NCBI RefSeq assembly: GCF_018139695.1
Contig: NZ_JAGSOG010000033.1
Location: 1-32,000 of the forward strand
DNA: 32,000 nucleotides
Reading direction: 5' to 3'
Source of the DNA: Actinospica durhamensis
GTDB taxonomy: Bacteria > Actinomycetota > Actinomycetes > Streptomycetales > Catenulisporaceae
Positions 3,043 through 20,352 of this stretch are shown here, piece by piece; the first letter of the stretch is position 1, and each line of letters opens with the position of its first letter. Below the pieces are notes generated by a model. The model made no database searches. It was not told where the DNA came from and was given only the letters and a program-made list of their open reading frames with translations. The position numbers were made by a program, and so were the translations under genes.

Positions 3043-3408
3043 GGTCGGCTCCTTGCGGGGGTGAAACGGCGCTCGTATCTTTGAAACGTATTTGGAACAC
3101 GGCAACGACGCAACGGCGTACCCCTGTGGTGCCTCACGTGATCAGCCCCAAGGCGAACGGGGCCCGGGCACTCGCGTGAATTCGGGTCGAACAGTGGGTT
3201 CGTGCATTGCTTCGTCATCAACGGTCTGTTTTCATTCTGCGAAATAGGCACGCGCCCGAAGTGGCGGACGGTGCGCCAGTCCGGCACCGGGCCGGAACCG
3301 CAGTCGCGAAACCGGCCGCGCTGCTCCTGCTGCCTGGCATACAGCCAGGTCAGCTGGCTTACCGCAGCGTTCCGGCGTCGAGTCGGAGCCTCGCTGCGGT
3401 CTTGCACG

Positions 3409-3437
3409 TTGACACGTGGTCGGGTGCGCCATAGCTT
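3409..3437 (+). promoter_or_regulatory. candidate sigma70-type promoter of the NRPS-PKS operon (TTGACA-N17-TAGCTT)
   Basis: TTGACA at 3409-3414, a 17-nt spacer, then TAGCTT at 3432-3437. The inverted repeat CACGT-TGAC-ACGTG (3405-3418) overlaps the -35. It lies in a 500-bp region of visibly lower GC between divergent genes. Confidence 0.4.
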
Positions 3438-3556
3438 GGTTCGAAGCAGTGCTCTGGGATGATCGACAGGCTGCGCGTGCGGGGGTCTCGGATACGAGAA
3501 GTGCGTCTGACGCGGCTACGAGTTCGGATCAAACTATCTCGCATGGGAGAACAGCT

Positions 3557-4400
3557 TTGCCTGCTCTGAACTTCATCCTGATCGGTGACACGGGGGCCCT
3601 CGCTCGCTGCGGCGAAATCCTCATGGAGAAAGGCCACCGGATCCGGGTGGTGATATCCGGCGACGCCGAGGTCCGCTCCTGGGCGGTCAAGGCCGGAATC
3701 CCCAGTTGTGAACTCGATGACGCGCTCGTCCTCGCGCCGCGGCTCGAGTGCGATCTACTGCTGAGCGTCGGCAATCACGCCATCGTGCCCGCCGCGCTGC
3801 TGGCCTGCGCGAAGCGCATGAGCGTCAACTACCACTACGGCCCGCTGCCCGAGTACGCGGGCCTGAACGCGCCGTCCTGGGCCGTCGCCCACCGCGAGCG
3901 CGAGTACGCCGTGACCTGGCACCGGATCGGCGAACTGGTCGACGGCGGCGACATCCTCAAGCGGATACCGGTGGCGGTCGAGCCCGGTGAGACCGCGTTG
4001 TCGCTGGGCCTGAAGTGTGACGAGGCGGCAGTCGGCAGTCTGGCCGCGCTGATCGACGAGATCGCCGAGGACCGCGTCACCGGCGTCTCCCAGGACCTGG
4101 CCGCACGCCGCTACTTCTCCCGGCACACCCAGCTCCCGGCCGAGGGCCTGATCGACTGGACGATCGGGGCCGACGACATCGTCGCGTTGGTCCGCGCCAC
4201 CGACCACGGGCCGTTCGACAGCCCGCTCGTGTGGCCCAAGGTGGACCTCAACGGGCACATCCTCGCCGTCCGCGCGGCGCACCCCGGCGCAGCCTCCCCC
4301 GGTACCTCGGCCGGGGAGGTCCTCGCATGTGACGACGCGTCCGGCCTGCAGGTGGCCACGGCCTCCGGCACCGTGCACCTGACCCGGCTGTGCACGCTGG
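3557..4400 (+). other. formyltransferase (F) domain, FMT-like N- and C-subdomains (approximate bounds)
   Basis: NFILIGDTGALA is followed by SVNYHYGPLPEYAG, the counterpart of the NxHxSLLPxxRG motif with Asn and His retained. ELVDGGDIL carries the catalytic Asp. LIDWTIGADDIVALVRATDHGP and GEVLACDDASGLQVATASGTVHLTRL match an FMT C-terminal barrel. Confidence 0.8.
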
Positions 4401-7400
4401 AGGGCGCGCCCGTCGCCGTCAGTGCACTGACGACGGGCATGTCGGTGCGGCCGGGACTGATCCTCGCGGCGCCCGGCGACGCGCTGCGCACCGCCATCAC
4501 CGAGGCCGGGACCGCGGCGTCGAAGGCCGCCGGCTACTGGCGCGAGCGCCTGGCCGGCGACGCCCACCCGTTCCGCCTTCCGTTCACGCCGCCGGTCTCC
4601 TCCGGCGCGCAGCAGCGCGTCACCGCGCGGTATCGGATACCCGGCGGAGTCCCAGCTCTCCTCGGCGCGCTCGGCACCTTCCTCGGCCGGGCGAGCATGA
4701 CCGAGAACCTCGTGCTCGCGGTCGCGGCGCCCCGCGACGGAGTCGATGCCGCATACCGGGACCTGTTCGCCGCCTGGCTGCCCCTGCGTGCCGCGTTCGA
4801 CCCCGCCCGCACGGTGGCCGAGAACCTCCAGGCGGTCGCCGAGGAATTCCGCCTCGGCCAGGAGAAGGCATGGCTGCGCCGCGACTTCATCGGGCGCGAC
4901 GCGACGCTCCGGAACCTTTGGGAATCCGGCGATCTGACCCCCGATGTGGCTGTTTCGTGGCCCGGCGCGACCGCGGGCGCGTCCACGTCCGCTGAAGGTA
5001 CCGGCGCACTCGGCCCCGCCCTGGAACTGGCCCTGCGCGAGGACGGGGAGACGGTCGAATTCCTCTTCGACGCCCAGCGCATCGCCCGCCAGGACGTCGT
5101 GCGACTCGCCGGGCAGCTGAGCGACTGGTGCGACCGGCTGCCCGCGCTGGTGGAGGAACCGCTGGCGTCCGTCGACGTTCTCGCCGGGCCGGAGCGCATG
5201 TCGCTGATCGACGCGTTCAACGCCACCGGTGACGACGCGGCTCTGGGGCACCGTCTGCACGAACTGTTCGAGCAGGCAGCCGAGAGCCACGCCGGCGACG
5301 TCGCCGTGATATGCGCCGAGACGCAGCTCACGTATCGGGAGCTCAACGCCGATGCGAACCGCGTCGCGCACGCATTGATCGCGCGCGGAATCGGGCGCGG
5401 CGACTTGGTCGGCCTCGCGCTGGACCGTTCCCTCGACCTCGTCGTGTCGCTGCTGGCCGTGCTGAAGACGGGTGCGGCCTATGTGCCGATCGACCCGGCG
5501 TTCCCGGCCGGACGCATCCGCCAGATGGTGGACAGCGCCGACCCCAAGGTCATCCTCACGCCGGCCGTGACACCGGTGAACCTCGCGTTCTGGGCGGCGC
5601 TCTGCCTGCCGATCGATGACGCGCGGACGCAGGCGGAAGCCGGCACGGACAACCCCGGCGTGCAGGTGGATGCCGACGACCTCGCGTACGTCATCTATAC
5701 GTCCGGTTCGACGGGTGCGCCCAAGGGTGTGGAGATCAGCCACGGCGCGCTGTGCAACTTCCTGCTGTCCATGCGGCGGCAGCCGGGCTGCGCCGAGACG
5801 GACCGGCTGCTCGCCGTCACCACCATCTCCTTCGACATCGCGGCCCTGGAGCTGTTCCTGCCGCTCTTGTCGGGCGCCACGGTGGTCATCGCCCAGGCTC
5901 ACGAGACGATCGACGCCGGCGCGCTGCTCGCCCTGATGCGACGTCACGCGCTCACCATGATGCAGGGCACGCCCGCCACCTGGCAGCTGCTGCTCGACTC
6001 GGGCTGGCACGGCGACCCGCGCTTGGCCACGATCCTGTGCGGCGGCGAGGCGTTGCCGCGTCAGCTGGCCGATCGGCTGCTCGACTGCGGCGACGCCGTG
6101 TGGAACATGTACGGCCCGACGGAGACCACTGTTTGGTCCAGCGTCTGGCACGTGGCGGACGGCGACGTCGTCATCGGCACCCCGATCGCCAACACCCAGC
6201 TCTACGTCCTCGACGCGAACCTGATGCCGGTGCCGGCGGGCTTCCCGGGTGAATTGTGCATCGGCGGCGCCGGTGTGGCGCGCGGCTACCACGGCGACGC
6301 CGAGCAGACCGGGTCCCGGTTCGTCGCCAACCCGTTCCACCCCGGCTCCCTCTACCGCACCGGAGACGTGGCCCGCTTCGTCGCACCGGACGCGCTGAGC
6401 GTGCTCGGTCGCAACGACGGCCAGGTCAAGCTGCGCGGCCACCGCATCGAGCTGGGCGACATCGAGGCGGCGCTGGCCAGCCACGAGGAGATCGCGCGTG
6501 CGGTCGTCATCGGCCGCGACGAGCAGCTGGTCGCCTACTGCGTCCGCGGCGGCGCGCCCTCCGCCGTGCCGGACGAACCGGCGCAGCGCGCGGCACCGGC
6601 CGAGTGGGCCGGCGCCTGGGACCGCGCGTACGAGTCAGAGGCCGACGACGCCGCGTTCAACCTGGCCGGCTGGCACAACAGCTACGACGGCCTGCCGTTC
6701 TCGGCCGCCGAGATGCGCGAGTGGCAGCGCGGCTCGGTCAACCGCATCCTGTCCTACGCGCCGCGCAACGTGTTCGAGATCGGCTCCGGCAGCGGTCTGA
6801 TGATGTTCGGTATCGCGCCGCACTGCGCGGCCTACCACGCCGTCGACGCCTCCGCGCGCGCGGTGGACTCCACCCGGCAGCACCTGGGGTCGCTGCCGCA
6901 CGTCACCTGTGAGCACCGCCCGGCGCACGACCTGCCCGACGTGGCCGAGGGCGCCTTCGACACCGTGATCGTCAACTCGGTGGCCCAGTACTTCCCGAAC
7001 GCCGCGTACCTGACCTCGGTGCTGGCGTGGGCGACCAGGGCGGTGACCGAGGGACGGGTGTTCCTCGGCGACATCCGCGACCTGTCGCTGCTGCGGATGT
7101 TCCACGCCGACGTGATCGACTTCCGCGCGGGCGGCGACATCGAGCCCGACGAACTGGCCCGCCGCGCGGACCAGGCCGTCGCGGCCGAGCGCGAGCTGAC
7201 GCTGGCACCCGCGTACTTCGCCGAGCTGCCCTCGGTGTTCCCGCAGATCACCCGGGTCGAGATCGCCCTGCGCGACGGCCACCACATCAATGAGATGACC
7301 CGTTATCGCTACGATGTGACACTCCATATAGGCGGCAGCGCGGACGTCGCGACATCCGGTGCCGAGCACAGCTGGCCGACACGGCAGCTCGATCTCGCCG

Positions 7401-10400
7401 CGCTGCGCGACCTCGTGGCGGCCGAAGCCGACGGCGGGCCGCTGCGCATCGACGACATCCCCAACGGACGACTCGGCGACGTGCACAGCCGGGTCGCCGC
7501 GGCCCTCGGTCACCCGGCCGAACCGCCGGCGTCCTGGGTGGACCCGCGGGATCTGACCGCCCTGGCCGACGAGGCGGGCGTGAGGCTCGCGCTTGTGCCC
7601 GCGAGCTCCGGCGACCCGTGGGCCTTCGACGCCCTGTTCTGGCAGCCCGGTCAGACGCCGGACCTGAGCCCGCGTCAGAGCGCCACCGCCGTCGACCGCG
7701 CCGCGCCGCATCAGCCCGCGTACACGAACGTGCCCGCGGTGGGGGAGCAGGCCAGGACCCCGCTCGGGCGGGTGCTGCGGCCGTGGCTGGCCGAACGGCT
7801 GCCCGCGTACATGGTCCCGGCGTTCTTCGTCGAGCTGGATCAGTTCCCGCTCACGCCCAACGGCAAGATCGACCGCGCGGCGCTGCCGGATCCGGTGGCC
7901 GAGTTCGAGGCGACGGCCAAGCCGGCCACCGAGCTCGAGCGCGACATCCTGGCCGTGTGGTCCGAGGTTCTGGGCCACGACCACATCGGCGTCAACCAGA
8001 ACTTCTTCGAGATCGGCGGCAACTCCCTGCGCGTCGTGCGCGTGCAGACCCAGCTGGAGAAGCTGCTGGGCCGGCCGGTCTCCGCGGCCAAGCTGTTCGA
8101 GCACTTCACCGTCAAGGCCCTCGCGGCGCACCTGGCCGGCGCCGCGACCACCCGCAAGGCTCCGATCCCGGCCCGTCGGCGCTCTGTCGACGAACCCATC
8201 GCCATCGTGGGCATGGCCTGCCGGCTGCCCGGCGAGGTGACCAGCCCGGAGGAGTTCTGGGAGCTGCTCGAACGCGGCGTCGACGGGATCGTGGAGGTTC
8301 CGCCGGACCGGTGGGACGCCGCGGCCATCTACGACCCCGACCCGGAGGCGCGCGGCAAGTCCATCTCCAGCCGTGGCGGCTTCGTCACCCCCATCGACCT
8401 GTTCGACGCCCCCTTCTTCGGCATCTCCCCGCGCGAGGCCAGGGCGATGGATCCGCTCCAGCGCCTGATGCTGGAGACCACGTGGGAGGCGTTCGAGCGG
8501 GCCGGGTACACCTTGGAGGAGCTGCGCGGCAGCCAGACCGGCGCGTTCGTCGGCGTCGGCAAGAGCGCGGGGTACCGCGAGTACGGCATCACCACGGGCG
8601 GCAGCATCGCCGACCTGGACGGGTACGTGGGCCCCGGCTCGGCCGGCGCCACCGCCTCGGGCCGGCTCTCGCACGTGTTCGGCCTCGAAGGCCCCACCAT
8701 GACCGTGGACACGGCCTGCTCCTCGTCCCTGGTGACCACCCACCTGGCCGCCAACGCGCTGCGCAACGGCGAATGCGACCTGGCCGTGTCCGGTGGCGCG
8801 ACCCTGATGCTCACCTCCAACATGCACGTGGAGTTCAGCCGTCTGCGCGGCATGTCGCCGGACGGGCTGTGCCGGTCCTTCTCCGCCGACAACGACGGCA
8901 CCGGATGGAGCGAGGGCGTCGCCGTCGTCATCCTCAAGCGGCTGTCCGACGCGCAGCGCGACGGCGATCCCGTCCTGGCCGTGCTGCGCGGCACCGCGGT
9001 CAACCACGACGGCCACGCCGCCAGCCTGACCACGCCCAGCGGACCCGCCCAGCAGCAGGTCATCCGCGCGGCCCTCGGCGCTTCGGGCCTGCAGCCGGAG
9101 GACATCGACTACCTGGAGGCGCACGGCACCGCCACCCGGCTCGGCGACCCCATCGAGGGCACCGCCCTCGGCGAGGTCTTCGGCGGCAGCCACCCCGCCG
9201 AGCCGCTGTGGGTCGGCTCGGTCAAGTCCAACCTCGGCCACACGCAGGCGGCCGCGGGCCTGGCCGGCGTGATGAAGATCGTGCTCGGCCTGCAGCACCA
9301 CCTGATCCCGCGCACCCTGCACGTCTCCGAGCCCTCACCCGCGGTGGACTGGGCGGGCGCGAACATGGCCCTGGTCCAGCAGGCTCAGCCGTGGCCGCCG
9401 AAGGACCGGCCGCGCCGCGGCGGGGTCAGCTCTTTCGGCATCGGCGGCACCAACGCGCACATCATCGTGGAGGAGCCGCCCGCCCCCGTCGAAGCGGACA
9501 AGCCCGCGGCGCCGCTGCCGCCGACCCTGCCCTTCCTCGTCTCCGGCTTCACCGACACCGCCCTGCGCCAGCAGGCGGAGGCGCTGCACCAGCACCTGGG
9601 CATGAACATCCAGGACCGCCTCGTCGACGTGGCGTACTCGCTGGCCGCGACGCGCAGCCACTTCCGCAAGCGGCTCGTGCTGATGGCCAGGGACAAGGCC
9701 GACCTGCTGGACAAGCTCGGCTCCTACGCCCGCAGCGGCGAGGTCCCGGCCGACGCCGTGCGCACCGGGGACCGCAGCGAGGATCCGCGACTCGCGCTGC
9801 TGTTCACCGGCCAGGGCAGCCAGTGGTCGGGCATGGGCAAGGACGTGTACGCGACCTACCCGGTGTTCCGCGCGGCGGTGGACGAGATCGCCGCCCACTT
9901 CACCGAGCTGGACCGGCCGCTGCTCGACGTCATGTGGGCCGACGACAGCGAGGACGCCGCGCTGCTGCACCGCACCGACTTCACCCAGCCGGCCCTGTTC
10001 ACCCTCGAGGTGGCGCTGTGGCGGCTGTGGCACAGCTGGGGCGTGCGGCCGGACCTGTTGGCGGGTCACAGCATCGGCGAGCTCGCGGCCGCCCACGTCG
10101 CAGGGGTCTTCGACCTGGCCGACGCCTGCCGCCTGGTGGGCGCCCGCGGCCGGTTGATGCAGGCGCTGCCCAGCCGTGGCGCGATGGCGTCGCTGGAGGC
10201 CACCGGCCCCGAAGCCGAAGCCGCGCTGGAGGAGCTGGGCCTGGCCGGCAAGGTCGACCTGGCCGGCCTCAACACGCCGACCCAGACCGTCGTCTCCGGC
10301 GACGCCGACGCCGTGCAGGCCCTGGTCGCGCACTTCGCCGCGCACGACCGCCGGGTCAAGGAACTGACCGTCTCGCACGCGTTCCACTCGCACCACATGG

Positions 10401-13400
10401 ACGGCATGCTGGCGCAGTACAGGGCCGTCGCCGAGACCGTGGCGTTCCACCCGCCCGCGCTGCCGTTGGTCAGCAGCCTGACCGGGGTCTCGGCCGCGCC
10501 GGGCGAGCTGGAGCAGGCCGAGTACTGGGTGCGGCAGGTGCGCCACGCCGTACGGTTCGGCGACAGCGTCGCGACGCTCCACCAGGAGGGTGTGAACATC
10601 TTCCTGGAGCTCGGCCCGCAGCCGGTGCTCTCCGGCATGGGTGCGGCGTGCCTGGCCGACGAGACCGGGCTGGCCTGGGTTGCGTCGCTGCAGGCGGGCA
10701 AGGACGGCTCCTCCGTCCTGCAGCGCGGCCTCGCCGACCTGCACGTGCTGGACGCGCCGATCGACTGGCGCGGCTGGTTCGCGCCGTTCGGCGCCGCGAT
10801 GGTGGAGCTGCCGACCTACGCCTTCCAGCGCGAGCGGTTCTGGTTCGATCCGCCGGCCCCGCGCTCGGTCGGCGCGGGCCTCGACGACACCGACCACCCG
10901 CTGCTCGGCGGCCTGGTCCGGATCGCCGGGACCGACTTGACGGTGTTCACCACCGTCGTGGCCTCCGACGAGCCGGCCTGGGTGCAGGACCACCAGATCA
11001 TGGGCACCGTCCTGATGCCGGGCACCGCGTACCTCGAGGCCATGCGTGCCGCCGGCGACGCCAGTGCGCCCGGCGACTGGGACGTGGCCGACGTCGGCTT
11101 CCTCTTCCCGATGGTGCTCACCAAGGGCACGTCCGCCCGGCTCCAGGTGACGGTGGGTCAGGAGTCCGACGGAGGCCGTGCGGTCCAGGTCTACAGCGCG
11201 CCCGACCGCGAGGACGGCGAGTGGCAGCTGCACGCCGAGGGCCGGATCGTGCCCGCGCAGCCCGGCCCGGGCGTCACGGTGACGCTGCCGCCGGCCGGGG
11301 CCGAGCGCCTCGACGTGTCCGCGCTGTACTCCGATCTGGACGAGCTCGGCTACGAATTCGGCCCGTTGTTCCAGGGCATCAAGGAGGCCTGGCAGGTCGA
11401 CGGGATGGTCTGGGCCCGCGCGGCCCTGCCCGAGGACAGCACGCACACCGCCGGCGACTACGTGCTGCACCCGGCCCTGATGGACTCGGCGATGCAGACC
11501 CTGCTGTTCAGCATGCGGCTGCAGAACACCGACCCCGACGACGTGCTCGTGCCGTACGAGGCGCAGCGCATGTCGATGCGGCGCAGGGGCCTGTCGGAGG
11601 TCTGGGTCCGCGTCGCGCGGTTCGAACTCGGCGAGGGCGAGTTCCGCGCGTCCCTGGACTTCTTCGACCCGGCCGGCGAGAACATCGGCGGGCTGCACGA
11701 GATGCACGCGCGGCGGGTGGACCGGGCGGTGCTGCGCCGGCTGGCCGCGGCCGGAGTGGACCGGTTCCAGTTCGAGGTCGACTGGAAGCCGGTCGGCACC
11801 GACAAGGTCGAGATCGGCGGCTCCTGGGGCCTGCTGTCCCCGGCCGGCGACGTGGCCTGGGGGCGCGAGGTCAAGACCGCCCTGAGCCGGGCCGGGGTCC
11901 AGGCGTTCAAGGTCCGCGACCTCGAGGAGGCGCAGGACCTGGACGGCGTGCTCTGCCTGTGGGATGCCGCAGACCCGACCCGGGCACTCGAGCTGGCCGG
12001 CAAGGCGCTCGCCCAGCTGCACGAGGCGGCCGAGTCCGGATTCGTACCGCCGCTGGTCTGGCTGACCCGCGGCGCGGTGGGCACCGACGCCGACGACATG
12101 GCCTCCGGGCTCGCGTCCGCGCCGCTGTGGGGCCTGATGCGCACCGCCCGCAGCGAGAATCCGGACCTGGCACTGCGTCTGATCGACCTCGGCGACGAGG
12201 AGCCCGACCTGCAGGCGCTCGCTCCGGCACTGATGCTGGCCGCGGAACCCGAATGCGCCCTGCGCCACGGCCAGGCGCTCGTCCCGCACCTGCAACGGGC
12301 CGGCGCCGGCGGCGAGCTGACGCTCCCGGCGGAGGGCCGCTGGCAGCTGGAGATCGCCGCCAAGGGCCGTCTGGACCAGCCGTTGACCGTCCGCAGAGTC
12401 ACGCCGAAGCCCCTGGCCGCCGGGGACATCCGGGCCGAGGTGAAGGCCACCGGCGTGAACTTCCTCGACGTGCTCAACGCGCTGGGGATGGTGGAGCTGC
12501 CGGTGTTCGGCATGGAGTTCGCCGGCGTCGTCACCGAGGTCGGCTCCGGGGTCAAGGACCTGAAGGTCGGCGATCCGGTGCTGGGCCTGGGCCAGGGCTC
12601 GTTCGCCTCCGAGGTGTCCACGGACGCGCGCTGGGTGGTGCGCATCCCGGACAACCTGAGCTTCGAGGAGGCCGCCACCATCCCGATGACGTTCCTGTCG
12701 GCGTGGTTCGGCCTGCACGAGCTGGGCGCGCTGCGGCCGGGTGAGCGGGTGCTGATCCACGCGGCCGCGGGCGGCGTCGGCATGGCGGCCGTGCAACTCG
12801 CGCAGCTGCACGGGGCCGAGGTGTACGGCACCGCCAGCGAGCCGAAGTGGGCGGCGCTGCGCGAACTCGGGCTCGACGACGACCACATCGCCTCGTCCCG
12901 GGACCTGGGCTTCGTCGAGTCCTTCGGCCGCACCGCGCCCGGACGCGGCTTCGACGTCGTGCTCAACTCGCTGGCCGACGAGTTCATCGACGCGGGCCTC
13001 GGGATGCTGGCCGCCGGCGGCCGCTTCCTGGAACTCGGCAAGATCGACCTGCGCGAGCAGGCCTGGGTGGACGAGAACCACCCGGGGGTGAAGTACCGGG
13101 TCTACCACCTGCTCGAGGCGGACCCCGACCTCATGCACACGATGCTGGTGTCCCTGGCCGAGCTGCTCGGGGCCGGCAAGCTCAAGCCGCTGCCGCTGCG
13201 CACCTTCCCGATCACGGCCACCTCCGACGCCCTGCGCTTCATGGCCCAGGCGCGGCACGTGGGCAAGGTGGTGCTGGTTCCCACGGAGCACAAGGAGTTC
13301 ATCCGGCCGGAAGGGGCCGTGCTGATCACCGGCGGCCTCGGCGCACTCGGCCGGCACGTCGCCATCTGGCTCGCGACCACGCACGGGGTCCGCGACTTCG

Positions 13401-15631
13401 TGCTCACCTCGCGCCGCGGCCCGGACGCCGCCGACGCCGAGGTGCTGGTGGCCGTCCTCGGCGCGCTCGGCGCCACCGCGACGGTGGTCGCCGCCGACGC
13501 GGCCGACGGGGACAGCATGAAGTCGGTGCTTTCGCTCTTCGACGCGGACCGTCCGCTGCGCGGCGTGGTCCATGCCGCGGGCGTGCTCGACGACGGCGCC
13601 CTCTCGGCTCTGACACCGGAACGGCTCGCGACCGTGTTCCTGCCCAAGGTGGACGGCGCCTGGCACCTGCACCGCCTGACGCAGGATCTGGACCTGGACT
13701 TCTTCCTGCTGTTCTCCTCGATCTCCAACGTGCTCGGCGCACCGGGCCAGGGCAACTACGCGGCCGCCAACGCGTTCCTCGACACGCTCGCGCACCTGCG
13801 CCGGGCCCAGGGCCTGCCGGCCACCTCGGTGGCATGGGGCCCGTGGGACGGCGACGGCATGGCCGCCGGACTCAGCGAGCGCGACCAGGTCCGGATCGCC
13901 CGTACGGGCCTTGACGGAATCTCCGCGGACGAAGGCCTGGAACTGCTCGAGGCGGCGGTGCGCAGCGGCCGCGCGTTGACGGTGGCGGCCGCGCTGGATC
14001 TCGGCCGCATCCAGACCTACTACGTGGAGCAGGGAGGCGTGCCGCCGCTGTTGCGCTCGCTGCTGAGCTCCCACTCCGGTGAGAACAGCCAGCGCGCCAA
14101 GGGCGACGGCGGCGCCGGACTGCGCCGGCTGTTGGGCCAGACCACGCCCGAGGAGCAGGTGAACGTCGTCCTCGACCTGGTCCGGGGCGGGGTGGCCAAG
14201 ACCCTGGGCTTCGCCTCGCTCTCCGACGTGGACGTGAACCTGCCGCTGCAGGACATCGGCATCGACTCGCTGACCGCCGTCCTGATGCGCAATCAGCTCG
14301 CGGACATGACCGGCCTTGCGCTGCCGGCCAAGATCGCCTTCGACCACCCGGACCTGACGTCGCTGTCCCAGTTCCTGCTGGCGAAGCTGCAGGAGCGCGG
14401 CCTCGACGCACCGGTCGAGGCGTCCGCCGACACGGGCGGGAGCCCGGCCGAGCCGGCCAACGCGGCCGGCCTGGACATGGCGCCGGTACGCAAGGGCTAC
14501 CTCGACCCGCAGCTGCGCTTCGACAACGCCCGCGACACCCTGGACCGTCCGGAGTCGGTGTTCCTGACCGGCGCCACCGGCTTCGTCGGCGCATTCCTGC
14601 TGCGCGAACTGCTCGAGGCCGGCATATCAGCGCACTGTCTGGTCCGGGCACCCGATCCGGAGGCGGCGACGCAGCGACTGGTCACCGCCCTGTCGAGCTA
14701 TGGGATGTGGGACGAGCGCTACGCGTCGCTGCTGCACCCGGTGGTGGGCGATCTGTCCCAGCCCCTGTTCGGACTGTCGCAGGAGACGTTCGACCAGCTC
14801 GCCGACGAGGTCGACGCCGTCTGCCACTCCGGCGCCCTGGTCGACTGGATGCGGCCGCTGAACGAGTACATCGGCCCCAACGTGATCGGCGTACACGAGG
14901 CACTGCGGCTGGCGTCGCAGGGCCGTGGCAAGGCGGTGCACGTCATGTCCACCTTCGGCACGCTGCCCCGATACCTGGGCTTCGAGGTCAAGCCGGACGA
15001 GGCGGAGTACGGCTACGTCACCTCCAAGTGGATGGCCGAGCAGATGGTGATCGCGGCGCGCTGGCGCGGCGCCAAGGCCTCGGTGTACCGGCTGCCGTTC
15101 GTGGGCCCGTCCGCGGGCACCGGCCACTTCCGGCTCGACCGCGGCGACTTCCTGCACAACCTGATCGTCGGCTGCATGGCCATGGGCAGCTACCCGACCA
15201 CGAACGCGAGCATGGCGGCCGTCCTGCCGGTGGACTACCTGTGCCGGACCGTCGCGGCGGTGCTGACCGAGGAGCGCGAGCACATCGGCCGGGACTACGA
15301 CTTCGTCAACGCCGAGGCGCCGAGCTTCAACGCCTTCTTCGAACTGGTCGCCGCGGCCGCGGGCGAGGGGGAACTGGTGCCGTTCGACGCGTGGAAGCGG
15401 CGCGCGCTGGACTACGCGGCCGCGCATCCGACCAGCGCGATGGCCCGCATCGGCGCGCTGGTGGACGGCCTGACGCCGGACAACCTGACGCTCACGTTCG
15501 GCGCCGGCCTCACCGGCGAGCACGTGTTCGGCGGCGCCGACCACCCCGCCCCGCGGCTCGGGGAGCAGTTCGCGGCGATGTACGTGGACCGCATCACCGC
15601 CGCCGAGACGTCCGCGGCCGTCACGGCCTGA
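3557..15631 (+). CDS. single-module hybrid NRPS-PKS megasynthase: F, C-relic, A(Gly)/nMT, T, KS, AT, DH, ER, KR, ACP, R
   Basis: One continuous frame carries all domain signatures (see the domain features below). The track start (GTG 3416) lies inside the putative promoter, and codons 3449-3556 are only about 50% G/C at position 3 by my count. G/C at position 3 rises after 3557. TTG 3557 is preceded by GGGAGA (3545-3550) and immediately begins the Rossmann strand PALNFILIGD. The start is therefore approximate (3557 or CTG 3566). The stop is TGA 15629-15631. Confidence 0.93.
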   Translation: MPALNFILIGDTGALARCGEILMEKGHRIRVVISGDAEVRSWAVKAGIPSCELDDALVLAPRLECDLLLSVGNHAIVPAALLACAKRMSVNYHYGPLPEYAGLNAPSWAVAHREREYAVTWHRIGELVDGGDILKRIPVAVEPGETALSLGLKCDEAAVGSLAALIDEIAEDRVTGVSQDLAARRYFSRHTQLPAEGLIDWTIGADDIVALVRATDHGPFDSPLVWPKVDLNGHILAVRAAHPGAASPGTSAGEVLACDDASGLQVATASGTVHLTRLCTLEGAPVAVSALTTGMSVRPGLILAAPGDALRTAITEAGTAASKAAGYWRERLAGDAHPFRLPFTPPVSSGAQQRVTARYRIPGGVPALLGALGTFLGRASMTENLVLAVAAPRDGVDAAYRDLFAAWLPLRAAFDPARTVAENLQAVAEEFRLGQEKAWLRRDFIGRDATLRNLWESGDLTPDVAVSWPGATAGASTSAEGTGALGPALELALREDGETVEFLFDAQRIARQDVVRLAGQLSDWCDRLPALVEEPLASVDVLAGPERMSLIDAFNATGDDAALGHRLHELFEQAAESHAGDVAVICAETQLTYRELNADANRVAHALIARGIGRGDLVGLALDRSLDLVVSLLAVLKTGAAYVPIDPAFPAGRIRQMVDSADPKVILTPAVTPVNLAFWAALCLPIDDARTQAEAGTDNPGVQVDADDLAYVIYTSGSTGAPKGVEISHGALCNFLLSMRRQPGCAETDRLLAVTTISFDIAALELFLPLLSGATVVIAQAHETIDAGALLALMRRHALTMMQGTPATWQLLLDSGWHGDPRLATILCGGEALPRQLADRLLDCGDAVWNMYGPTETTVWSSVWHVADGDVVIGTPIANTQLYVLDANLMPVPAGFPGELCIGGAGVARGYHGDAEQTGSRFVANPFHPGSLYRTGDVARFVAPDALSVLGRNDGQVKLRGHRIELGDIEAALASHEEIARAVVIGRDEQLVAYCVRGGAPSAVPDEPAQRAAPAEWAGAWDRAYESEADDAAFNLAGWHNSYDGLPFSAAEMREWQRGSVNRILSYAPRNVFEIGSGSGLMMFGIAPHCAAYHAVDASARAVDSTRQHLGSLPHVTCEHRPAHDLPDVAEGAFDTVIVNSVAQYFPNAAYLTSVLAWATRAVTEGRVFLGDIRDLSLLRMFHADVIDFRAGGDIEPDELARRADQAVAAERELTLAPAYFAELPSVFPQITRVEIALRDGHHINEMTRYRYDVTLHIGGSADVATSGAEHSWPTRQLDLAALRDLVAAEADGGPLRIDDIPNGRLGDVHSRVAAALGHPAEPPASWVDPRDLTALADEAGVRLALVPASSGDPWAFDALFWQPGQTPDLSPRQSATAVDRAAPHQPAYTNVPAVGEQARTPLGRVLRPWLAERLPAYMVPAFFVELDQFPLTPNGKIDRAALPDPVAEFEATAKPATELERDILAVWSEVLGHDHIGVNQNFFEIGGNSLRVVRVQTQLEKLLGRPVSAAKLFEHFTVKALAAHLAGAATTRKAPIPARRRSVDEPIAIVGMACRLPGEVTSPEEFWELLERGVDGIVEVPPDRWDAAAIYDPDPEARGKSISSRGGFVTPIDLFDAPFFGISPREARAMDPLQRLMLETTWEAFERAGYTLEELRGSQTGAFVGVGKSAGYREYGITTGGSIADLDGYVGPGSAGATASGRLSHVFGLEGPTMTVDTACSSSLVTTHLAANALRNGECDLAVSGGATLMLTSNMHVEFSRLRGMSPDGLCRSFSADNDGTGWSEGVAVVILKRLSDAQRDGDPVLAVLRGTAVNHDGHAASLTTPSGPAQQQVIRAALGASGLQPEDIDYLEAHGTATRLGDPIEGTALGEVFGGSHPAEPLWVGSVKSNLGHTQAAAGLAGVMKIVLGLQHHLIPRTLHVSEPSPAVDWAGANMALVQQAQPWPPKDRPRRGGVSSFGIGGTNAHIIVEEPPAPVEADKPAAPLPPTLPFLVSGFTDTALRQQAEALHQHLGMNIQDRLVDVAYSLAATRSHFRKRLVLMARDKADLLDKLGSYARSGEVPADAVRTGDRSEDPRLALLFTGQGSQWSGMGKDVYATYPVFRAAVDEIAAHFTELDRPLLDVMWADDSEDAALLHRTDFTQPALFTLEVALWRLWHSWGVRPDLLAGHSIGELAAAHVAGVFDLADACRLVGARGRLMQALPSRGAMASLEATGPEAEAALEELGLAGKVDLAGLNTPTQTVVSGDADAVQALVAHFAAHDRRVKELTVSHAFHSHHMDGMLAQYRAVAETVAFHPPALPLVSSLTGVSAAPGELEQAEYWVRQVRHAVRFGDSVATLHQEGVNIFLELGPQPVLSGMGAACLADETGLAWVASLQAGKDGSSVLQRGLADLHVLDAPIDWRGWFAPFGAAMVELPTYAFQRERFWFDPPAPRSVGAGLDDTDHPLLGGLVRIAGTDLTVFTTVVASDEPAWVQDHQIMGTVLMPGTAYLEAMRAAGDASAPGDWDVADVGFLFPMVLTKGTSARLQVTVGQESDGGRAVQVYSAPDREDGEWQLHAEGRIVPAQPGPGVTVTLPPAGAERLDVSALYSDLDELGYEFGPLFQGIKEAWQVDGMVWARAALPEDSTHTAGDYVLHPALMDSAMQTLLFSMRLQNTDPDDVLVPYEAQRMSMRRRGLSEVWVRVARFELGEGEFRASLDFFDPAGENIGGLHEMHARRVDRAVLRRLAAAGVDRFQFEVDWKPVGTDKVEIGGSWGLLSPAGDVAWGREVKTALSRAGVQAFKVRDLEEAQDLDGVLCLWDAADPTRALELAGKALAQLHEAAESGFVPPLVWLTRGAVGTDADDMASGLASAPLWGLMRTARSENPDLALRLIDLGDEEPDLQALAPALMLAAEPECALRHGQALVPHLQRAGAGGELTLPAEGRWQLEIAAKGRLDQPLTVRRVTPKPLAAGDIRAEVKATGVNFLDVLNALGMVELPVFGMEFAGVVTEVGSGVKDLKVGDPVLGLGQGSFASEVSTDARWVVRIPDNLSFEEAATIPMTFLSAWFGLHELGALRPGERVLIHAAAGGVGMAAVQLAQLHGAEVYGTASEPKWAALRELGLDDDHIASSRDLGFVESFGRTAPGRGFDVVLNSLADEFIDAGLGMLAAGGRFLELGKIDLREQAWVDENHPGVKYRVYHLLEADPDLMHTMLVSLAELLGAGKLKPLPLRTFPITATSDALRFMAQARHVGKVVLVPTEHKEFIRPEGAVLITGGLGALGRHVAIWLATTHGVRDFVLTSRRGPDAADAEVLVAVLGALGATATVVAADAADGDSMKSVLSLFDADRPLRGVVHAAGVLDDGALSALTPERLATVFLPKVDGAWHLHRLTQDLDLDFFLLFSSISNVLGAPGQGNYAAANAFLDTLAHLRRAQGLPATSVAWGPWDGDGMAAGLSERDQVRIARTGLDGISADEGLELLEAAVRSGRALTVAAALDLGRIQTYYVEQGGVPPLLRSLLSSHSGENSQRAKGDGGAGLRRLLGQTTPEEQVNVVLDLVRGGVAKTLGFASLSDVDVNLPLQDIGIDSLTAVLMRNQLADMTGLALPAKIAFDHPDLTSLSQFLLAKLQERGLDAPVEASADTGGSPAEPANAAGLDMAPVRKGYLDPQLRFDNARDTLDRPESVFLTGATGFVGAFLLRELLEAGISAHCLVRAPDPEAATQRLVTALSSYGMWDERYASLLHPVVGDLSQPLFGLSQETFDQLADEVDAVCHSGALVDWMRPLNEYIGPNVIGVHEALRLASQGRGKAVHVMSTFGTLPRYLGFEVKPDEAEYGYVTSKWMAEQMVIAARWRGAKASVYRLPFVGPSAGTGHFRLDRGDFLHNLIVGCMAMGSYPTTNASMAAVLPVDYLCRTVAAVLTEEREHIGRDYDFVNAEAPSFNAFFELVAAAAGEGELVPFDAWKRRALDYAAAHPTSAMARIGALVDGLTPDNLTLTFGAGLTGEHVFGGADHPAPRLGEQFAAMYVDRITAAETSAAVTA
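4535..5180 (+). other. condensation-domain relic (C-terminal lobe only, no HHxxxDG)
   Basis: YWRERLAGDAHPFRLPF and LFAAWLPLRAAFDPARTVAENLQAVAEEF resemble the segments that follow core C3 (C4/C5 region) in NRPS C domains. No HHxxxDG or N-terminal lobe motifs are visible anywhere upstream. Confidence 0.55.
5185..7890 (+). other. adenylation domain, predicted glycine-specific, interrupted by a methyltransferase
   Basis: Core motifs: LTYRELN, LKTGAAYVPIDP, LAYVIYTSGSTGAPKG, FDIAALE, NMYGPTETT, GELCIGGAGVARGY, YRTGD, GRNDGQVKLRGHRIELGDIE, LPAYMVP, PNGKIDR. My hand-extracted Stachelhaus positions give D-I-L-Q-L-G-M-V-W-K, which matches the glycine code DILQLG(L/M)(I/V)WK. Confidence 0.85.
6600..7650 (+). 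other. embedded SAM-dependent N-methyltransferase domain (between A8 and A9)
   Basis: VFEIGSGSG (SAM motif I), DTVIVNSVAQYFPNAAYL, INEMTRYRYDVTL and IPNGRLGDV form the signature set of NRPS N-MT domains. Confidence 0.8.
7930..8140 (+). other. peptidyl carrier protein (T) domain
   Basis: FFEIGGNSL, with the phosphopantetheinyl Ser codon at 8024-8026. Confidence 0.9.
8200..9480 (+). other. ketosynthase (KS) domain, catalytically complete
   Basis: EPIAIVGMACRLPG, DTACSSSLV (Cys codon 8717-8719), EAHGTATRLGDPIE, GSVKSNLGHTQAAAG, GGTNAHIIVEE. Confidence 0.93.
9790..10640 (+). other. acyltransferase (AT) domain, malonyl-CoA-type
   Basis: FTGQGSQWSGMG, GHSIGELAAAH (Ser codon 10070-10072) and the HAFH motif (VSHAFHSHHM). 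HAFH is the accepted malonyl signature, whereas methylmalonyl AT domains have YASH. Confidence 0.85.
10893..11760 (+). other. dehydratase (DH) domain
   Basis: HPLLGG, HQIMGTVLMPG (HxxxGxxxxP), LGYEFGPLFQG (GYxYGPxF) and HPALMDSAMQ (DxxxQ) are all intact. Confidence 0.85.
12334..13283 (+). other. enoylreductase (ER) domain
   Basis: MDR fold: GVNFLDVLNALGM and LIHAAAGGVGMAAVQLAQLHGAEVYGTAS (NADPH site), ending HVGKVVLVP. Confidence 0.85.
13319..13870 (+). other. ketoreductase (KR) catalytic subdomain, B-type (LDD)
   Basis: VLITGGLGALGRH (NADPH), HAAGVLDDG (LDD motif), SSISNVLGAPGQGNYAAANAFLD (Ser/Tyr/Asn). The putative structural subdomain lies between DH and ER (about 11760-12330). Confidence 0.85.
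14150..14395 (+). other. acyl carrier protein (ACP) domain
   Basis: LQDIGIDSLTAVLMRNQL, with the Ser codon at 14267-14269. Confidence 0.9.
14558..15600 (+). other. terminal thioester reductase (R/TD) domain
   Basis: VFLTGATGFVGAFLLRELL (TGxxGxxG) and YGYVTSKW (YxxxK) on an SDR fold of about 350 aa at the C-terminus. No TE domain is present. Confidence 0.88.
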
Positions 15632-15706
15632 CCCACAGCGCACCACCGGACGGAGCCGGCCGGCGACGGGCGGCTCCGGCCCCGAACACCAGGAGGATGG
15701 AACGGT

Positions 15707-17026
15707 ATGAGTGCTCAGTCCGAGCTGAAGCAGGCGAACGAGCCCGTCATGACGGGCACCTATCAGAAGAGCGGCACCTTCCTGCACTCCTCCGCCGGTG
15801 CGCACGCCGAGAAGCTGATGCCCGTCCTGGAGAAGTATCCGGTGAGCCAGGAGGAGGTGGACTCGCGGCTGCCGCCCAAGCGCGTGCTGAACCCGAGCTG
15901 CTTCCACCCCGAGGAGACCCCGACCGTCGTCGAGCAGATGAACCTCGACGACGACCTCGCCGAGAACCTGGCCCGGCAGCTGCGGTGCCAGGCCGTGATC
16001 CAGGAGAGCTTCGCCGCGGCGTCGATCGGCAACTACTTCCCGCTCTCGACGATGTTCGAGAACTGCGTGCTGTTCATCCCGTCGGCCAAGCGCTTCTACG
16101 ACCTCAACCAGGAGATCGTCCACAAGCACTTCCCCGAGGTGGAGACCGCGGTGGTCAACGCCTTCGTGGTCACCGCCAACAAGCGCTCCTACGGCACCCA
16201 CTCCGCCAGCGGCATCGCGTTGCAGATCCCGTCCCTGGTGAAGAAGCGGCTGGGCTTCCCGACCGAGTACCGCAGCTTCCACACCGCGCTCACCCCGACG
16301 CCGCTGGACCGCCAGCCGTTCGTGATCTTCGAGGATGCCGAGGAGGAGGCCCCCAACCTCCAGTACGCGTACGAGAAGATCCTGGAGTGCGGCGTGGACA
16401 AGGAGGAGAAGGCCGCCGTCGACAAGGCCCTGTACCTCTTCCTCGAAGGCAAGCTCTCCGAGATCGACCTGCCCACCGTGCGGGACTTCATGATGGCGAA
16501 GTACTGGGAGAAGCGTTACGCCGACACTCCGTCCCCCGGCTACTACTGCGACTCGCGGGTCGGCGACGCCCTCGTGTTCGACAACTACCGGGCGCACGGC
16601 GACTGCACCCTGCCCGGCTCGCCGAACGACCGGCTGACCATCGACTTCCGCTGCTTCAACAAGGTGCACTACCCGGCCGGCATGTCCGGCGGCCTCGACT
16701 TCATCGTCGACCCGGACGAGCGCGACTACCAGATCAAGCGCAAGCGGGACTCGATCGAGTTCCTGCTCCTGACGCTGGGCTACGAGAGTATCGACGAGTT
16801 CCTGCGGCTGGTGTTCGGCGCGCGCGGCACGGACGAGATCAACCCGTTCGAGCTCATGACCGACCTGCAGTTCGGCGTCTACAACAAGTCCAGGTACCAC
16901 CTGCTGGACCAGAACCTCGACGACCACTACGAGCGGGTGGAACGGCTCTACGCGCGGATCGAGCAGACCGGCGAGTACATCCTGCCGCAGAGCGCGAAGC
17001 AGCGTCTCGAGGCGCTTGCGCAGTAG
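15707..17026 (+). CDS. orphan 439-aa protein; possible PhyH-like non-heme Fe(II)/2-oxoglutarate-fold enzyme (function unassigned)
   Basis: AGGAGG (15691-15696) lies 10 nt upstream of the ATG, and third-position G/C is very high, so it is clearly coding. It sits 75 nt after the megasynthase stop and 12 nt before the MFS gene. GDALVFDNYRAHGDCTLPGSPNDRLTIDFR resembles the distal His/Arg strand of PhyH-type oxygenases and halogenases. No canonical HxD/E was identified. The confidence value refers to the gene being real, not to its function. Confidence 0.75.
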   Translation: MSAQSELKQANEPVMTGTYQKSGTFLHSSAGAHAEKLMPVLEKYPVSQEEVDSRLPPKRVLNPSCFHPEETPTVVEQMNLDDDLAENLARQLRCQAVIQESFAAASIGNYFPLSTMFENCVLFIPSAKRFYDLNQEIVHKHFPEVETAVVNAFVVTANKRSYGTHSASGIALQIPSLVKKRLGFPTEYRSFHTALTPTPLDRQPFVIFEDAEEEAPNLQYAYEKILECGVDKEEKAAVDKALYLFLEGKLSEIDLPTVRDFMMAKYWEKRYADTPSPGYYCDSRVGDALVFDNYRAHGDCTLPGSPNDRLTIDFRCFNKVHYPAGMSGGLDFIVDPDERDYQIKRKRDSIEFLLLTLGYESIDEFLRLVFGARGTDEINPFELMTDLQFGVYNKSRYHLLDQNLDDHYERVERLYARIEQTGEYILPQSAKQRLEALAQ

Positions 17027-17038
17027 AGAACAACAGCC

Positions 17039-18460
17039 ATGACCGAGATCACCGCCACGTCCACCGACGCCCCCACCGAGGCGTCCGCCCGAGGACTGCT
17101 GGCCATCGTGCTCACCGGGGTGTTCATCGCCACCCTGGATGTGGCCATCGCCAACGTCGCCGCGCCGCGCATCGGCACCGACCTGCACGCCACCGGCGCC
17201 GACCTGCAACTCGTGGTCGCCGGCTACATGATCACCTACGCCGTCCTGATCGTCACCTGTGCGCGCCTGGGCGACCTGGCCGGCCGCAGGAACATGTTCC
17301 TCGCCGGCGTCGCGCTCTTCACGCTGGCGTCCTTGGCCTGCGGCGTGGCCTGGGCGGCCGTGCCGCTGATCGTCTTCCGGTTCGTGCAGGGCGCCGGCGC
17401 CGCGCTGATGGTGCCTCAGGTGCTCAGCCTCATCCAGCTGCATTTCAAGGACGGCGCCCGGGCCAAGGCCCTGAGTACCTACGCCGCGGTGATCGCCTGC
17501 GGCGCGATCGCCGGCCAGATCGTCGGCGGCGTCCTGGTCAACGCCGACCTCTGGGGCAGCCAGTGGCGGCCGGTGTTCCTGGTCAACGTGCCGATCGGCC
17601 TGGTACTGCTGGTCGCCGGCGCGCGGGCGCTGCCCAAGGACAACGGCCATCCGGGCCGCAGACTCGATCTGCCCGGCCTCGCCACCTTGTCCCTGGCCGT
17701 GTTCGCCCTGGTGCTGCCGTTGGTCCTCGGCCACCAGCTGGGTTGGCCGACGTGGACCTGGGTGAGCCTGGCGCTGTGCGCGGTGTTCGTGGCGCTCTTC
17801 GTCCTGGTCGAGCGTCGAGCGTCGCGCACCGGCGGCTCGCCGCTGATCCGCGGCGACCTGCTGCGCGCGCCCGGCATGCTCGTCGGCGCGTCGGGCCTGC
17901 TCGCCGCCACGGCCAACTACGCCGGGATCCTGTTCCTGATCACGCTCTACGTCCAGGAGGGCCTGGGCCACGGCGCGCTGGTCGCCGCCATGGTGTTCCT
18001 GCCCAGCGCGGTCGCGTTCGGCTTCGCCAGTCTGAGCTGGCGAAAGCTACCCGCGGCGTGGCACCGCTCGCTGGCTCCGGCAGGCCTCGGTCTCACGACC
18101 CTGGCGTTCCTCGGGCTCGCCCTCACCATGCGCGGCGGCCATATCAGCGTATGGATGGAACTGTGCATCCTGTGCTTCGGACTCGGCATGGGAACGGCGT
18201 TCAGCCCCATGTTCACGATCGCGTTCTCGAAGGTGCCCCCGATCTACGCCGCGGACGCCAGCGGCGTGCTCACCACGGTGAACCAGCTCGGCCAGGTCAT
18301 CGGCGTCGCGGTCTACGGCTCGGTGTTCCTGAGCCTGTTCCACACCCCGTCCGACGCGCCGCACGCGGCCCTGGTCACCACGCTGGTGATGGCCTGCGGA
18401 AGCGTGTTCGGCTCGCTGATCTCGCTCGGCCTGCCCCGCAACACCCCGAAGGGAGCCTGA
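17039..18460 (+). CDS. MFS transporter, DHA2 (EmrB/QacA-like, 14-TMS size class) probable exporter
   Basis: 473 aa and hydrophobic throughout. The N-terminal FIATLDVAIANVAAPRI and LGDLAGRRNMFLAGVALFTLASLACG are typical DHA2 motifs. Confidence 0.88.
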   Translation: MTEITATSTDAPTEASARGLLAIVLTGVFIATLDVAIANVAAPRIGTDLHATGADLQLVVAGYMITYAVLIVTCARLGDLAGRRNMFLAGVALFTLASLACGVAWAAVPLIVFRFVQGAGAALMVPQVLSLIQLHFKDGARAKALSTYAAVIACGAIAGQIVGGVLVNADLWGSQWRPVFLVNVPIGLVLLVAGARALPKDNGHPGRRLDLPGLATLSLAVFALVLPLVLGHQLGWPTWTWVSLALCAVFVALFVLVERRASRTGGSPLIRGDLLRAPGMLVGASGLLAATANYAGILFLITLYVQEGLGHGALVAAMVFLPSAVAFGFASLSWRKLPAAWHRSLAPAGLGLTTLAFLGLALTMRGGHISVWMELCILCFGLGMGTAFSPMFTIAFSKVPPIYAADASGVLTTVNQLGQVIGVAVYGSVFLSLFHTPSDAPHAALVTTLVMACGSVFGSLISLGLPRNTPKGA

Positions 18461-18532: not shown

Positions 18533-19405
18533 ATGCTGATTCCCATGAGCACTCACCCCGCACGGCGGCTCTGGCACAGCCTGGAGGCGCTTTACCAGCC
18601 GGCCCTGTTGGTGGACGACACCCGCGACGCCGGAGCGGCTCTCGGTCTGCGCGGATTCTGGATGGCCTTCCTCGCCTTCCGGGCGGCTCCGCTCGGCGCG
18701 GTGAGCGCCGCGACCGCGACCGCGGCGTTCGGCGGATTCGCGCCGGGCAAGGTGGCCAAGGCCATCCCGGGGGCCTGGGCGACGGCGTCCCCGGCGGACT
18801 GCGTCGCCAGCCGCAACGCGCTGGCCGGCAAGCTGCTGCGCAGCGCGGGCGTCACCGAGGAGGCCGCCGCACCCCTGGTCGAGCGGCTGGCGGCGTTGCC
18901 CGCGGCCCTCGAACCGACGGGCCGTCCGCTCGGCGCCGCCAACGCCGCCCTCCCGCTCCCGGAAGATCCGATCGCGGCGCTGTGGCAGCTCGCCGGCACG
19001 GTCCGCGAGTACCGCGGCGACGGCCATGTGGCCTCCTGGGTCGCCGCGGGCGTGAGCGGCCTGGAGTCCCACCACCTGCTCACCGCCGGCCGCGCGGCCG
19101 ACGTGGCGATGATGCGCGAGATACGCGGCTGGACCGCCGAGGAGTGGTCCGCGGCGGCCGAGGCGCTGACCGCCCGCGGCCTGCTCGACGCCACCGCGGG
19201 CACCCTCACCGACACCGGCCTGCGCCTGCGCGCCCAGGTCGAGCGGCAGACCGACGAGCTCTCCTGGTCCGGCGGCATGTCCGTGCTGGGTGAAGACGGC
19301 GTCGCAGAGATCTGCGCGGCTCTCGCTCCGGTGGTGAGATCCGTCCGCGACTGCGACATGGCGCCCCTGCTCACCCTGCTCGCCCCCGACGTCGACGAGG
19401 CCTGA
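18533..19405 (+). CDS. conserved actinobacterial protein, SCO6745-like (possible C-terminal winged-helix)
   Basis: The layout PARRLWHSLEALY...GLRGFWMAFLAFRAAPLG...REYRGDGHVASW...GLESHHL matches what I recall of the SCO6745 family. The start could be ATG 18533 or 18545. Assignment is from memory only. Confidence 0.55.
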   Translation: MLIPMSTHPARRLWHSLEALYQPALLVDDTRDAGAALGLRGFWMAFLAFRAAPLGAVSAATATAAFGGFAPGKVAKAIPGAWATASPADCVASRNALAGKLLRSAGVTEEAAAPLVERLAALPAALEPTGRPLGAANAALPLPEDPIAALWQLAGTVREYRGDGHVASWVAAGVSGLESHHLLTAGRAADVAMMREIRGWTAEEWSAAAEALTARGLLDATAGTLTDTGLRLRAQVERQTDELSWSGGMSVLGEDGVAEICAALAPVVRSVRDCDMAPLLTLLAPDVDEA

Positions 19406-19435
19406 GCCGCCACGCCGACCTCGGTGTTCTTGGTC

Positions 19436-19483
19436 GGGTTCTCTGTCGGGTTCGGGTTCGGGTTCGTATTCGGGTTCGGGGTC
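19436..19483. repeat. hexanucleotide microsatellite (GGGTTC)n, 5 perfect and 3 degenerate units
   Basis: The tract reads GGGTTC TCTGTC GGGTTC GGGTTC GGGTTC GTATTC GGGTTC GGGGTC. It fills the convergent intergenic gap and runs into the MerR stop codon (19482-19484). Confidence 0.85.
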
Positions 19484-20312: not shown

Positions 20313-20352
20313 GGACGGCTCCTTCGTTCCGGGCGGGTGCCCGGTCGGCTTC

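Follow-up and report, generated by a model that had tools for sequence, protein, structure and literature searches.

In this work, we analyzed a 32,000-nucleotide stretch of the Actinospica durhamensis genome (contig NZ_JAGSOG010000033.1, positions 1 to 32,000; hereafter the window). It carries the gene of a nonribosomal peptide synthetase–polyketide synthase (NRPS-PKS) megasynthase (3557–15631, + strand), followed by the gene of a 439-amino-acid protein (15707–17026, +) and that of a major facilitator superfamily (MFS) transporter (17039–18460, +). The megasynthase and the 439-aa gene are a conserved two-gene core found across two bacterial phyla. In the explanation that we prefer, and to which we give about an even chance of being right as a whole, the megasynthase would build 4-(N-methylformamido)butanal, the 439-aa enzyme would modify it, and the MFS transporter would export the product. 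A first-pass annotation had described the cluster as an orphan and the 439-aa protein as unassignable. Neither description was borne out, since the cluster belongs to a family conserved across two phyla and the protein has, by model and Foldseek comparison, a PhyH-like Fe(II)/2-oxoglutarate (Fe/2OG) oxygenase fold.

Linkage of the two genes is tight and widespread. A scan for homologs of the 439-aa protein, with one genome taken per species, gave 55 loci, including many in Streptomyces, Kitasatospora, Nocardia, Actinoplanes, Streptacidiphilus, Streptosporangiaceae and Solirubrobacteraceae, together with seven Achromobacter loci and others in Ramlibacter, Pseudovibrio, Granulosicoccaceae and Sulfurifustis. 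One more locus, in a metagenome-assembled genome (MAG) of Wenzhouxiangellaceae, came from a separate look-up of its contig. In about 50 genomes, drawn from Actinomycetota and Pseudomonadota, the megasynthase gene adjoins the 439-aa gene. With tblastn, the segments for the embedded-methyltransferase adenylation domain, the ketosynthase, the enoylreductase–ketoreductase and the reductase were found immediately 5' of the 439-aa gene wherever the homolog was at least 62% identical and upstream DNA was available. The only exceptions without an upstream megasynthase were 44–49% identical paralogs in a Candidatus Multivoradales MAG. In this MAG (L004/L059, 10001–12504), the 44%-identical paralog overlaps an arylsulfotransferase-like gene by 4 nt, and no megasynthase lies nearby. 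Other paralogs (L064, L066) adjoin SCP-x-type thiolase/DUF35 pairs as well as MBOAT, Cupin_8 and alpha/beta-hydrolase genes.

Three subtypes of the cluster can be told apart by what accompanies the core. In most loci (subtype I), a 260-aa alpha/beta-hydrolase gene directly follows the 439-aa gene. In subtype II, i.e., the window and Kitasatospora-like loci, this hydrolase is missing; genes for an MFS transporter and an HTH_67 protein follow, and a thiolase gene is nearby. Subtype III, found in S. iranensis and its relatives, has a megasynthase without enoylreductase and no hydrolase after the 439-aa gene. Co-occurrence of megasynthase, 439-aa and MFS genes holds for the first two throughout the loci of at least 62% identity with upstream DNA available, whereas the MFS gene stays confined to subtype II. 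The S. iranensis chromosome (CP136563.1) carries its cluster twice (L036, 97837–119165; L039, 12093868–12115196); the copies, which point in opposite directions, lie near the two ends of this 12.2-Mb linear chromosome and look like part of its terminal inverted repeats.

The whole megasynthase is carried by a single open reading frame (ORF) of 4071 codons (3416–15631, +) that opens with GTG 3416 and not at 3409, where the operon had been taken to begin. Its likely start is TTG 3557, which is preceded by 47 ORF codons and sits 5 nt behind GGGAGA (3546–3551). A start at this TTG gives about 4024 aa, and the Kitasatospora orthologue has 4030 aa. Pfam models match in the order Formyl_trans_N/C, AMP-binding, Methyltransf_12/25/11, AMP-binding_C, PP-binding, KS N/C, Acyl_transf_1, PKS_DH_N/PS-DH, ADH_N/ADH_zinc_N, KR, PP-binding and NAD_binding_4, in agreement with the domain order first read from the sequence. 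The N-terminal formyltransferase (F) domain (3557–4450; Formyl_trans_N/C at residues 110–341) has NYHYGPLP with its N-x-H and VDGGD with the catalytic Asp. A linker of about 265 aa (4451–5245) leads to the adenylation (A) domain, of which motifs A1–A8 (5267–6535; AMP-binding, residues 618–959) and A9–A10 (7757–7867; AMP-binding_C, residues 1448–1484) are separated by an embedded methyltransferase (MT; 6596–7627; models at residues 1119–1213) with the S-adenosylmethionine (SAM) motif EIGSGSG and NEMTRYRYD. The peptidyl carrier domain (T; 7943–8134; PP-binding, residues 1510–1573) has GGNSL. In the PKS part, we find the ketosynthase (KS; 8192–9325, residues 1593–1970) with DTACSSS and both His motifs, a malonyl-type acyltransferase (AT; 9800–10657, residues 2129–2414) with GHSIGE and HAFH, a dehydratase (DH; 10895–11734, residues 2494–2773) with HQIMGTVLMPG (HxxxGxxxxP), an enoylreductase (ER; 12419–13276, residues 3002–3287) with HAAAGGVG, a ketoreductase (KR; 13313–13849, residues 3300–3478) with GGLGALG, LDD and YAAANA, and an acyl carrier protein domain (ACP; 14168–14365) with GIDSL. 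A thioester reductase (R) domain closes the protein (14558–15439; NAD_binding_4, residues 3717–3945) and shows GATGFVG and YVTSK. All of these domains lie on the + strand. Judged by its motifs, the gene is real and intact; the motifs of F, MT, ER and R are complete, and the A-domain code is of the glycine type.

The starter unit can be read from the first four functions. The F domain aligns with the sugar N-formyltransferase 5VYT, with Fmt and with ArnA, placing NYH and VDGGD over their catalytic residues, and its N-x-H...D is invariant in 11 actinobacterial and proteobacterial orthologues, including those of Ramlibacter and Achromobacter. It is thus, from alignment, a formyltransferase fold with complete catalytic residues, for which we predict transfer to a carrier-bound amino acid. 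Upon re-extraction, the specificity code came out unchanged as DILQLGMVW plus the GKIDR lysine; across 49 related loci it is identical in 45 and has one conservative residue changed in the other 4. We assign the type DILQLG[LM][IV]WK to glycine on the basis of published code tables. The MT matches fall between AMP-binding and AMP-binding_C, so that a SAM-dependent MT is inserted between A8 and A9; against the interrupted A domain of TioS (5WMM) the match has E=1e-42 over 344 residues. Within the linker between F and A, earlier called a condensation-domain relic, we found no Condensation match in Pfam even at E<=10 and no HHxxxDG in any frame, and we rejected it as a condensation domain for these reasons. 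A condensation-domain remnant is a plausible but weak reading: similarity to the C-terminal part of such a domain and to the linker behind it is confined to the last ~80 aa (McyB, E=0.056), and the alignment to the NCBIfam MxcG model begins at residue 463. We also rejected an oxazole-type pathway from formylglycine and a cyclodehydratase, because the nitrogen would carry a methyl group and the window has no cyclodehydratase gene. In the mycalolide cluster, a unit of A(Gly), formyltransferase and MT in MylA gives N-formyl-N-methylglycine (bioRxiv 10.1101/2024.12.29.630706).

From these domains, the assembly would proceed as follows. Glycine would be adenylated and loaded on T, N-methylated by the embedded MT and then, presumably in this order, N-formylated by the F domain from 10-formyl-tetrahydrofolate, to give N-formyl-N-methylglycyl-S-T. 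The KS would carry out one condensation with malonyl-ACP, and KR, DH and ER would turn the former glycine carbonyl into CH2. Release by the R domain would yield 4-(N-methylformamido)butanal or, if this is reduced once more, the corresponding alcohol. The formyl group probably serves as protection: without it, the 4-(methylamino)butanoyl thioester would close on itself to N-methylpyrrolidone while still on the enzyme. This assembly logic to an N-formyl-N-methyl C6 aldehyde, which the first-pass annotation had already laid out, is still the best reading in light of the motifs, the MylA precedent and the modular character of KS-AT. The 439-aa enzyme would then use its non-canonical iron site to oxidise or halogenate the chain, whether still bound to the ACP or already released as the aldehyde, and in the Actinospica/Kitasatospora subtype the MFS transporter would export the product. 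The real product is probably modified beyond the aldehyde, because the end product first proposed leaves out the sole partner gene that is always linked.

The R domain reaches 222.3 bits against TIGR01746 (cut-off 213.35). Since neither its Y-x-x-x-K nor its NAD(P)H motif is damaged, we rejected a Dieckmann-type, non-reducing R domain. Motif searches in all frames of the window found no thioesterase (TE), MbtH-like protein, phosphopantetheinyl transferase (PPTase) or cyclodehydratase, as had been stated before. Likewise, there is no gene for a transaminase or another enzyme that would trap the aldehyde, and there is no deformylase candidate in the window.

The 439-aa protein has a 100% identical database entry, a hypothetical protein of A. 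durhamensis. No Pfam or NCBIfam model matches it, and no PhyH match was found in 120+ close homologs either. At E<=0.001 there are 127 homologs, and among the 120 listed most are 62–91% identical. With only 75 relatives among the 1.84 billion representatives that a profile search covered exhaustively, the family is small. A third word-index protein search, made with distant relatives, brought in just one more sequence. An AlphaFold2 model built from 31 homologs (pLDDT 88, pTM 0.87) nevertheless lets us assign the protein with confidence to the PhyH-like Fe(II)/2OG oxygenase fold, a double-stranded beta-helix. In a Foldseek search of the PDB, all of the top 50 matches were Fe(II)/2OG oxygenases (ColD, proline hydroxylase, SptF, ThoJ, WelO5, FtmOx1, AsqJ, SnoK and others). 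Moreover, a distant relative with H-x-D, P0188, clears the gathering score of Pfam PhyH (PF05721) with 25.6 versus 22 bits. The model further shows large insertions of helices and, at the C-terminus, a helical domain. Another set of distant relatives (P0124–P0141) consists of proteins of ~500 aa with hydrophobic N-termini and a conserved Cys, several with a C-terminal hydrophobic tail; they look secreted or membrane-anchored and are possibly eukaryotic.

In Fe/2OG enzymes the distal His is usually followed, 10–13 residues on, by Arg-x-Ser/Thr, and this Arg binds the C5 carboxylate of 2OG. The 439-aa protein has the motif H165-x-A167 ... H297-G-D299 ... R309-x-T311-x-D313-x-R315, in which the nearly invariant R309-x-T311 pair comes 12 residues behind H297, and the adjoining D299 and D313 may change the pocket. 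H165, F291 and H297 are invariant down to 18% identity, and R309, R315 and H192 nearly so. In the model, H165 lies in the loop after strand 145–155, the place of H-x-D in PhyH-type enzymes. A facial triad of the H-x-D/E...H type is, however, not formed, with A167 in the carboxylate place; we infer this equivalence from the secondary structure and the PhyH profile coordinates of P0188. A167 is invariant in 31 of 31 closer homologs, and canonical H-x-D occurs only in three distant relatives. The acidic residues covary with this position: members with H-x-A have Asp (D299) two residues after the distal His together with D313, whereas those with H-x-D have Ser/Thr at the D299 place. At least two of the three H-x-D relatives are located in other NRPS or trans-AT PKS clusters, and distant relatives of the family are likewise found in NRPS and PKS clusters.

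An Ala two residues after the first His is a hallmark of SyrB2-type radical halogenases. The 439-aa protein could hence represent a new Fe/2OG clade of radical halogenases, with halide bound in the site opened by Ala167, a possibility that we entertain only tentatively. The ACP-bound or free chain would then be chlorinated, be it to decorate the product at the end or, cryptically, to prepare a cyclisation. The invariant H165-x-A167 at the PhyH-type H-x-D place, the conserved distal His and the Arg 12 residues downstream all fit, and the halogenase WelO5 is among the fold matches. The H-x-D relatives in other NRPS/PKS clusters mirror hydroxylase/halogenase splits seen in other Fe/2OG clades, and because of this location such a split within one tailoring family is conceivable. 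However, the covariation of D299 and D313 would be explained equally well if the acid ligand had been relocated or the co-substrate pocket altered, and there is no halide-related gene near the 439-aa gene.

The end point first proposed for the window was a different one, i.e., deformylation after release, upon which 4-methylaminobutanal would cyclise to the N-methyl-delta1-pyrrolinium cation. This would be a bacterial route from glycine and malonate to a plant alkaloid precursor, and its chemistry follows directly from the assembly line. In most orthologous clusters, the 260-aa alpha/beta-hydrolase could act as the deformylase. Two further features are weak hints of a cationic N-methyl product in other subtypes. 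Na_H_Exchanger genes (cation/proton antiporters) stand beside 439-aa homologs in three different, unrelated neighborhoods (L005, 13033–14298; L062, 1822–3249; L068, 15119–16345). In the gammaproteobacterial Wenzhouxiangellaceae MAG (L002), the cluster is followed by genes for a Rieske oxygenase of the N-demethylase type (12250–13401) and an MMPL transporter (14545–16845); the best match of the former is the glycine-betaine monooxygenase GbcA, far below cut-off. For the window itself, however, this end point finds no support: the hydrolase is absent here and from the Kitasatospora relatives, and where it occurs it has a generic esterase-type fold that nothing ties to amide or formamide hydrolysis. 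Furthermore, the scheme gives the universally conserved 439-aa enzyme no role, and the ER-less subtype would yield an unsaturated aldehyde. Overall, we regard the pyrrolinium proposal as unlikely. We are similarly doubtful of a broader picture, in which a widespread, horizontally spread two-gene pathway of soil actinomycetes and proteobacteria, Achromobacter among them, would make a very small N-capped amino-aldehyde and combine a new iron-enzyme clade (a halogenase family or one with a relocated acid ligand) with N-methylpyrrolinium formation in the hydrolase-bearing subtypes.

The number of extension cycles bears on chain length. Motifs identify the PKS part as a modular cis-AT type I module, with the KS Cys-His-His residues and the AT, DH, ER, KR and ACP motifs all present. 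The best PDB matches of KS-AT are CurL and DEBS, and with 837 bits to CurL and 700–817 to DEBS it is closer to modular enzymes than to MAS (562), Pks13 (~460) or fungal iterative PKSs (<440). For this reason, a single extension with malonate is the favored, parsimonious reading. Iterative use of the KS-AT-DH-ER-KR-ACP module to a long-chain omega-(N-methylformamido) fatty aldehyde or alcohol, i.e., a lipid, would be in line with the resemblance of a fully reducing single module plus terminal reductase to MAS/Pks2-type and "PKS_plus_SDR" architectures (NCBIfam matches) and with MMPL, MBOAT and thiolase-type genes near some homologs, but we consider it improbable given these bit scores and the NCBIfam iterative-PKS models, all of which stay far under their cut-offs.

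Returning to a modified 4-(N-methylformamido)butanal as the product of the conserved core, several points weigh against it. The product is a prediction from the sequence, which in itself is also compatible with iteration of the single PKS module. The Foldseek scores that point to the Fe/2OG fold are weak (E 3e-4 to 7e-3, target TM 0.33–0.52), and PDB searches with three profiles of the 439-aa family (A1, A2, A3) and the single sequence P0188 returned chance matches only, without a residue-level alignment to any solved oxygenase. As the canonical carboxylate ligand is missing, cofactor use by the 439-aa protein is uncertain. Most orthologous clusters add the alpha/beta-hydrolase that is absent here, and the end point may hence differ between subtypes. 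Finally, the window encodes no PPTase.

Around the core, the window has a G+C content of 68–74%, and real genes could be picked out by their third-position GC (GC3), which is 0.94–0.97 for the megasynthase, 439-aa and MFS genes. The 439-aa gene has AGGAGG 10 nt upstream. As noted from the start, the genes follow each other closely, with intergenic gaps of 75 nt between megasynthase and 439-aa gene and 12 nt from there to the MFS gene. After another 72 nt comes an SCO6745-family HTH_67 gene (18533–19405, +), a possible regulator that accompanies the cluster in Kitasatospora, with a terminator-like hairpin at 19420–19438 on its 3' side. The hairpin and the short gaps suggest that megasynthase to HTH_67 form one transcription unit. 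The MFS protein shows 14 hydrophobic peaks and resembles the DHA2 exporters, which have 14 transmembrane segments; it matches MFS_1 in Pfam with E=6e-44 and DHA2/EmrB-type models, of which TIGR00711 gives 160 bits, under its cut-off of 230. On the other side, divergent from the megasynthase, lies a thiolase gene (1858–3105, −) of uncertain cluster membership, and beyond it a PNPOx-like gene (1320–1757, −) and a rhodanese gene (366–1253, −). Thiolase and HTH_67 genes go with the cluster in both Actinospica and Kitasatospora (L068, 12801–14857), arranged differently; in Kitasatospora the thiolase sits inside the cluster. The genes past HTH_67 are unrelated and code for TerC/DUF475, an ABM-globin fusion, MerR-GyrI, a zinc-type dehydrogenase and CBM/GH proteins. 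The fusion (22047–22823, −) has 258 aa and joins an antibiotic-biosynthesis-monooxygenase (ABM) domain to a bacterial truncated-globin domain. At 19482–20450 and 22850–23600, long ORFs run on both strands; none of their frames has a clear coding GC3 bias, and there is no Pfam match.

Every domain type of the megasynthase is known, as is the logic of an N-formyl-N-methylglycine starter. New is the combination of an unprecedentedly compact arrangement with an unannotated iron-enzyme family that has an unusual metal motif. Our literature search found no description of the cluster or of the 439-aa family, although most subscription journals and MIBiG lay outside its coverage, and an earlier characterisation is possible. 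With only one fully reducing module and release by reduction, the predicted output is an N-capped C6 amino-aldehyde, unusually small for a 4000-aa enzyme. That the product has a selected function is argued by the strict conservation of the megasynthase with one partner gene across two phyla. Through the 439-aa family, which has an altered metal site and no Pfam model, the Fe/2OG-type class could gain a halogenase or an iron-site geometry of a new kind. If pyrrolinium formation were true for the hydrolase-bearing subtypes, bacteria would have a glycine-plus-malonate route to the plant tropane/nicotine precursor. Because the system is compact, with two essential genes in ~15 kb, it is directly testable by heterologous expression.

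Compared with known systems, the starter unit is closest in content to the loading modules of MylA (mycalolide), tolytoxin (tto) and luminaolide (lum), which likewise combine A(Gly), N-formyltransferase and N-methyltransferase and pass N-formyl-N-methylglycine to a KS. In the mycalolide-type pathways, however, over 20 trans-AT modules follow and the starter becomes an N-methyl-N-vinylformamide tail, whereas in the window it is received by a single cis-AT, fully reducing module with a reductase; moreover, F is N-terminal here, with a degenerate linker between F and A. An N-terminal F fused to A-T with N-x-H...D catalytic residues is shared with LgrA of linear gramicidin and with the formylglycine loaders of oxazolomycin and conglobatin. 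These modules have no embedded MT, and the oxazole pathways need a cyclodehydratase; LgrA itself was not among the sequence matches of the F domain. The R domain resembles those of MxcG, AusA, Lys2 and carboxylic acid reductase (CAR)-type enzymes in its TIGR01746 match and its NAD(P)H and Y-x-x-x-K motifs, but its predicted substrate is a very short N-capped amino-acyl ketide, and no aldehyde-trapping enzyme is encoded alongside. The 439-aa protein shares the fold of PhyH hydroxylases (PF05721) while having neither a PhyH match nor the facial-triad carboxylate. With the halogenases SyrB2 (H-x-A) and WelO5/BesD (H-x-G) it has in common the fold class, a small residue after the first His, the distal His and the downstream Arg. 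It differs from Fe/2OG halogenases in having no detectable sequence similarity to them, in its helical insertions and in the extra invariant D299 and D313 that line the barrel; halogenation is only one possible reaction of this family.

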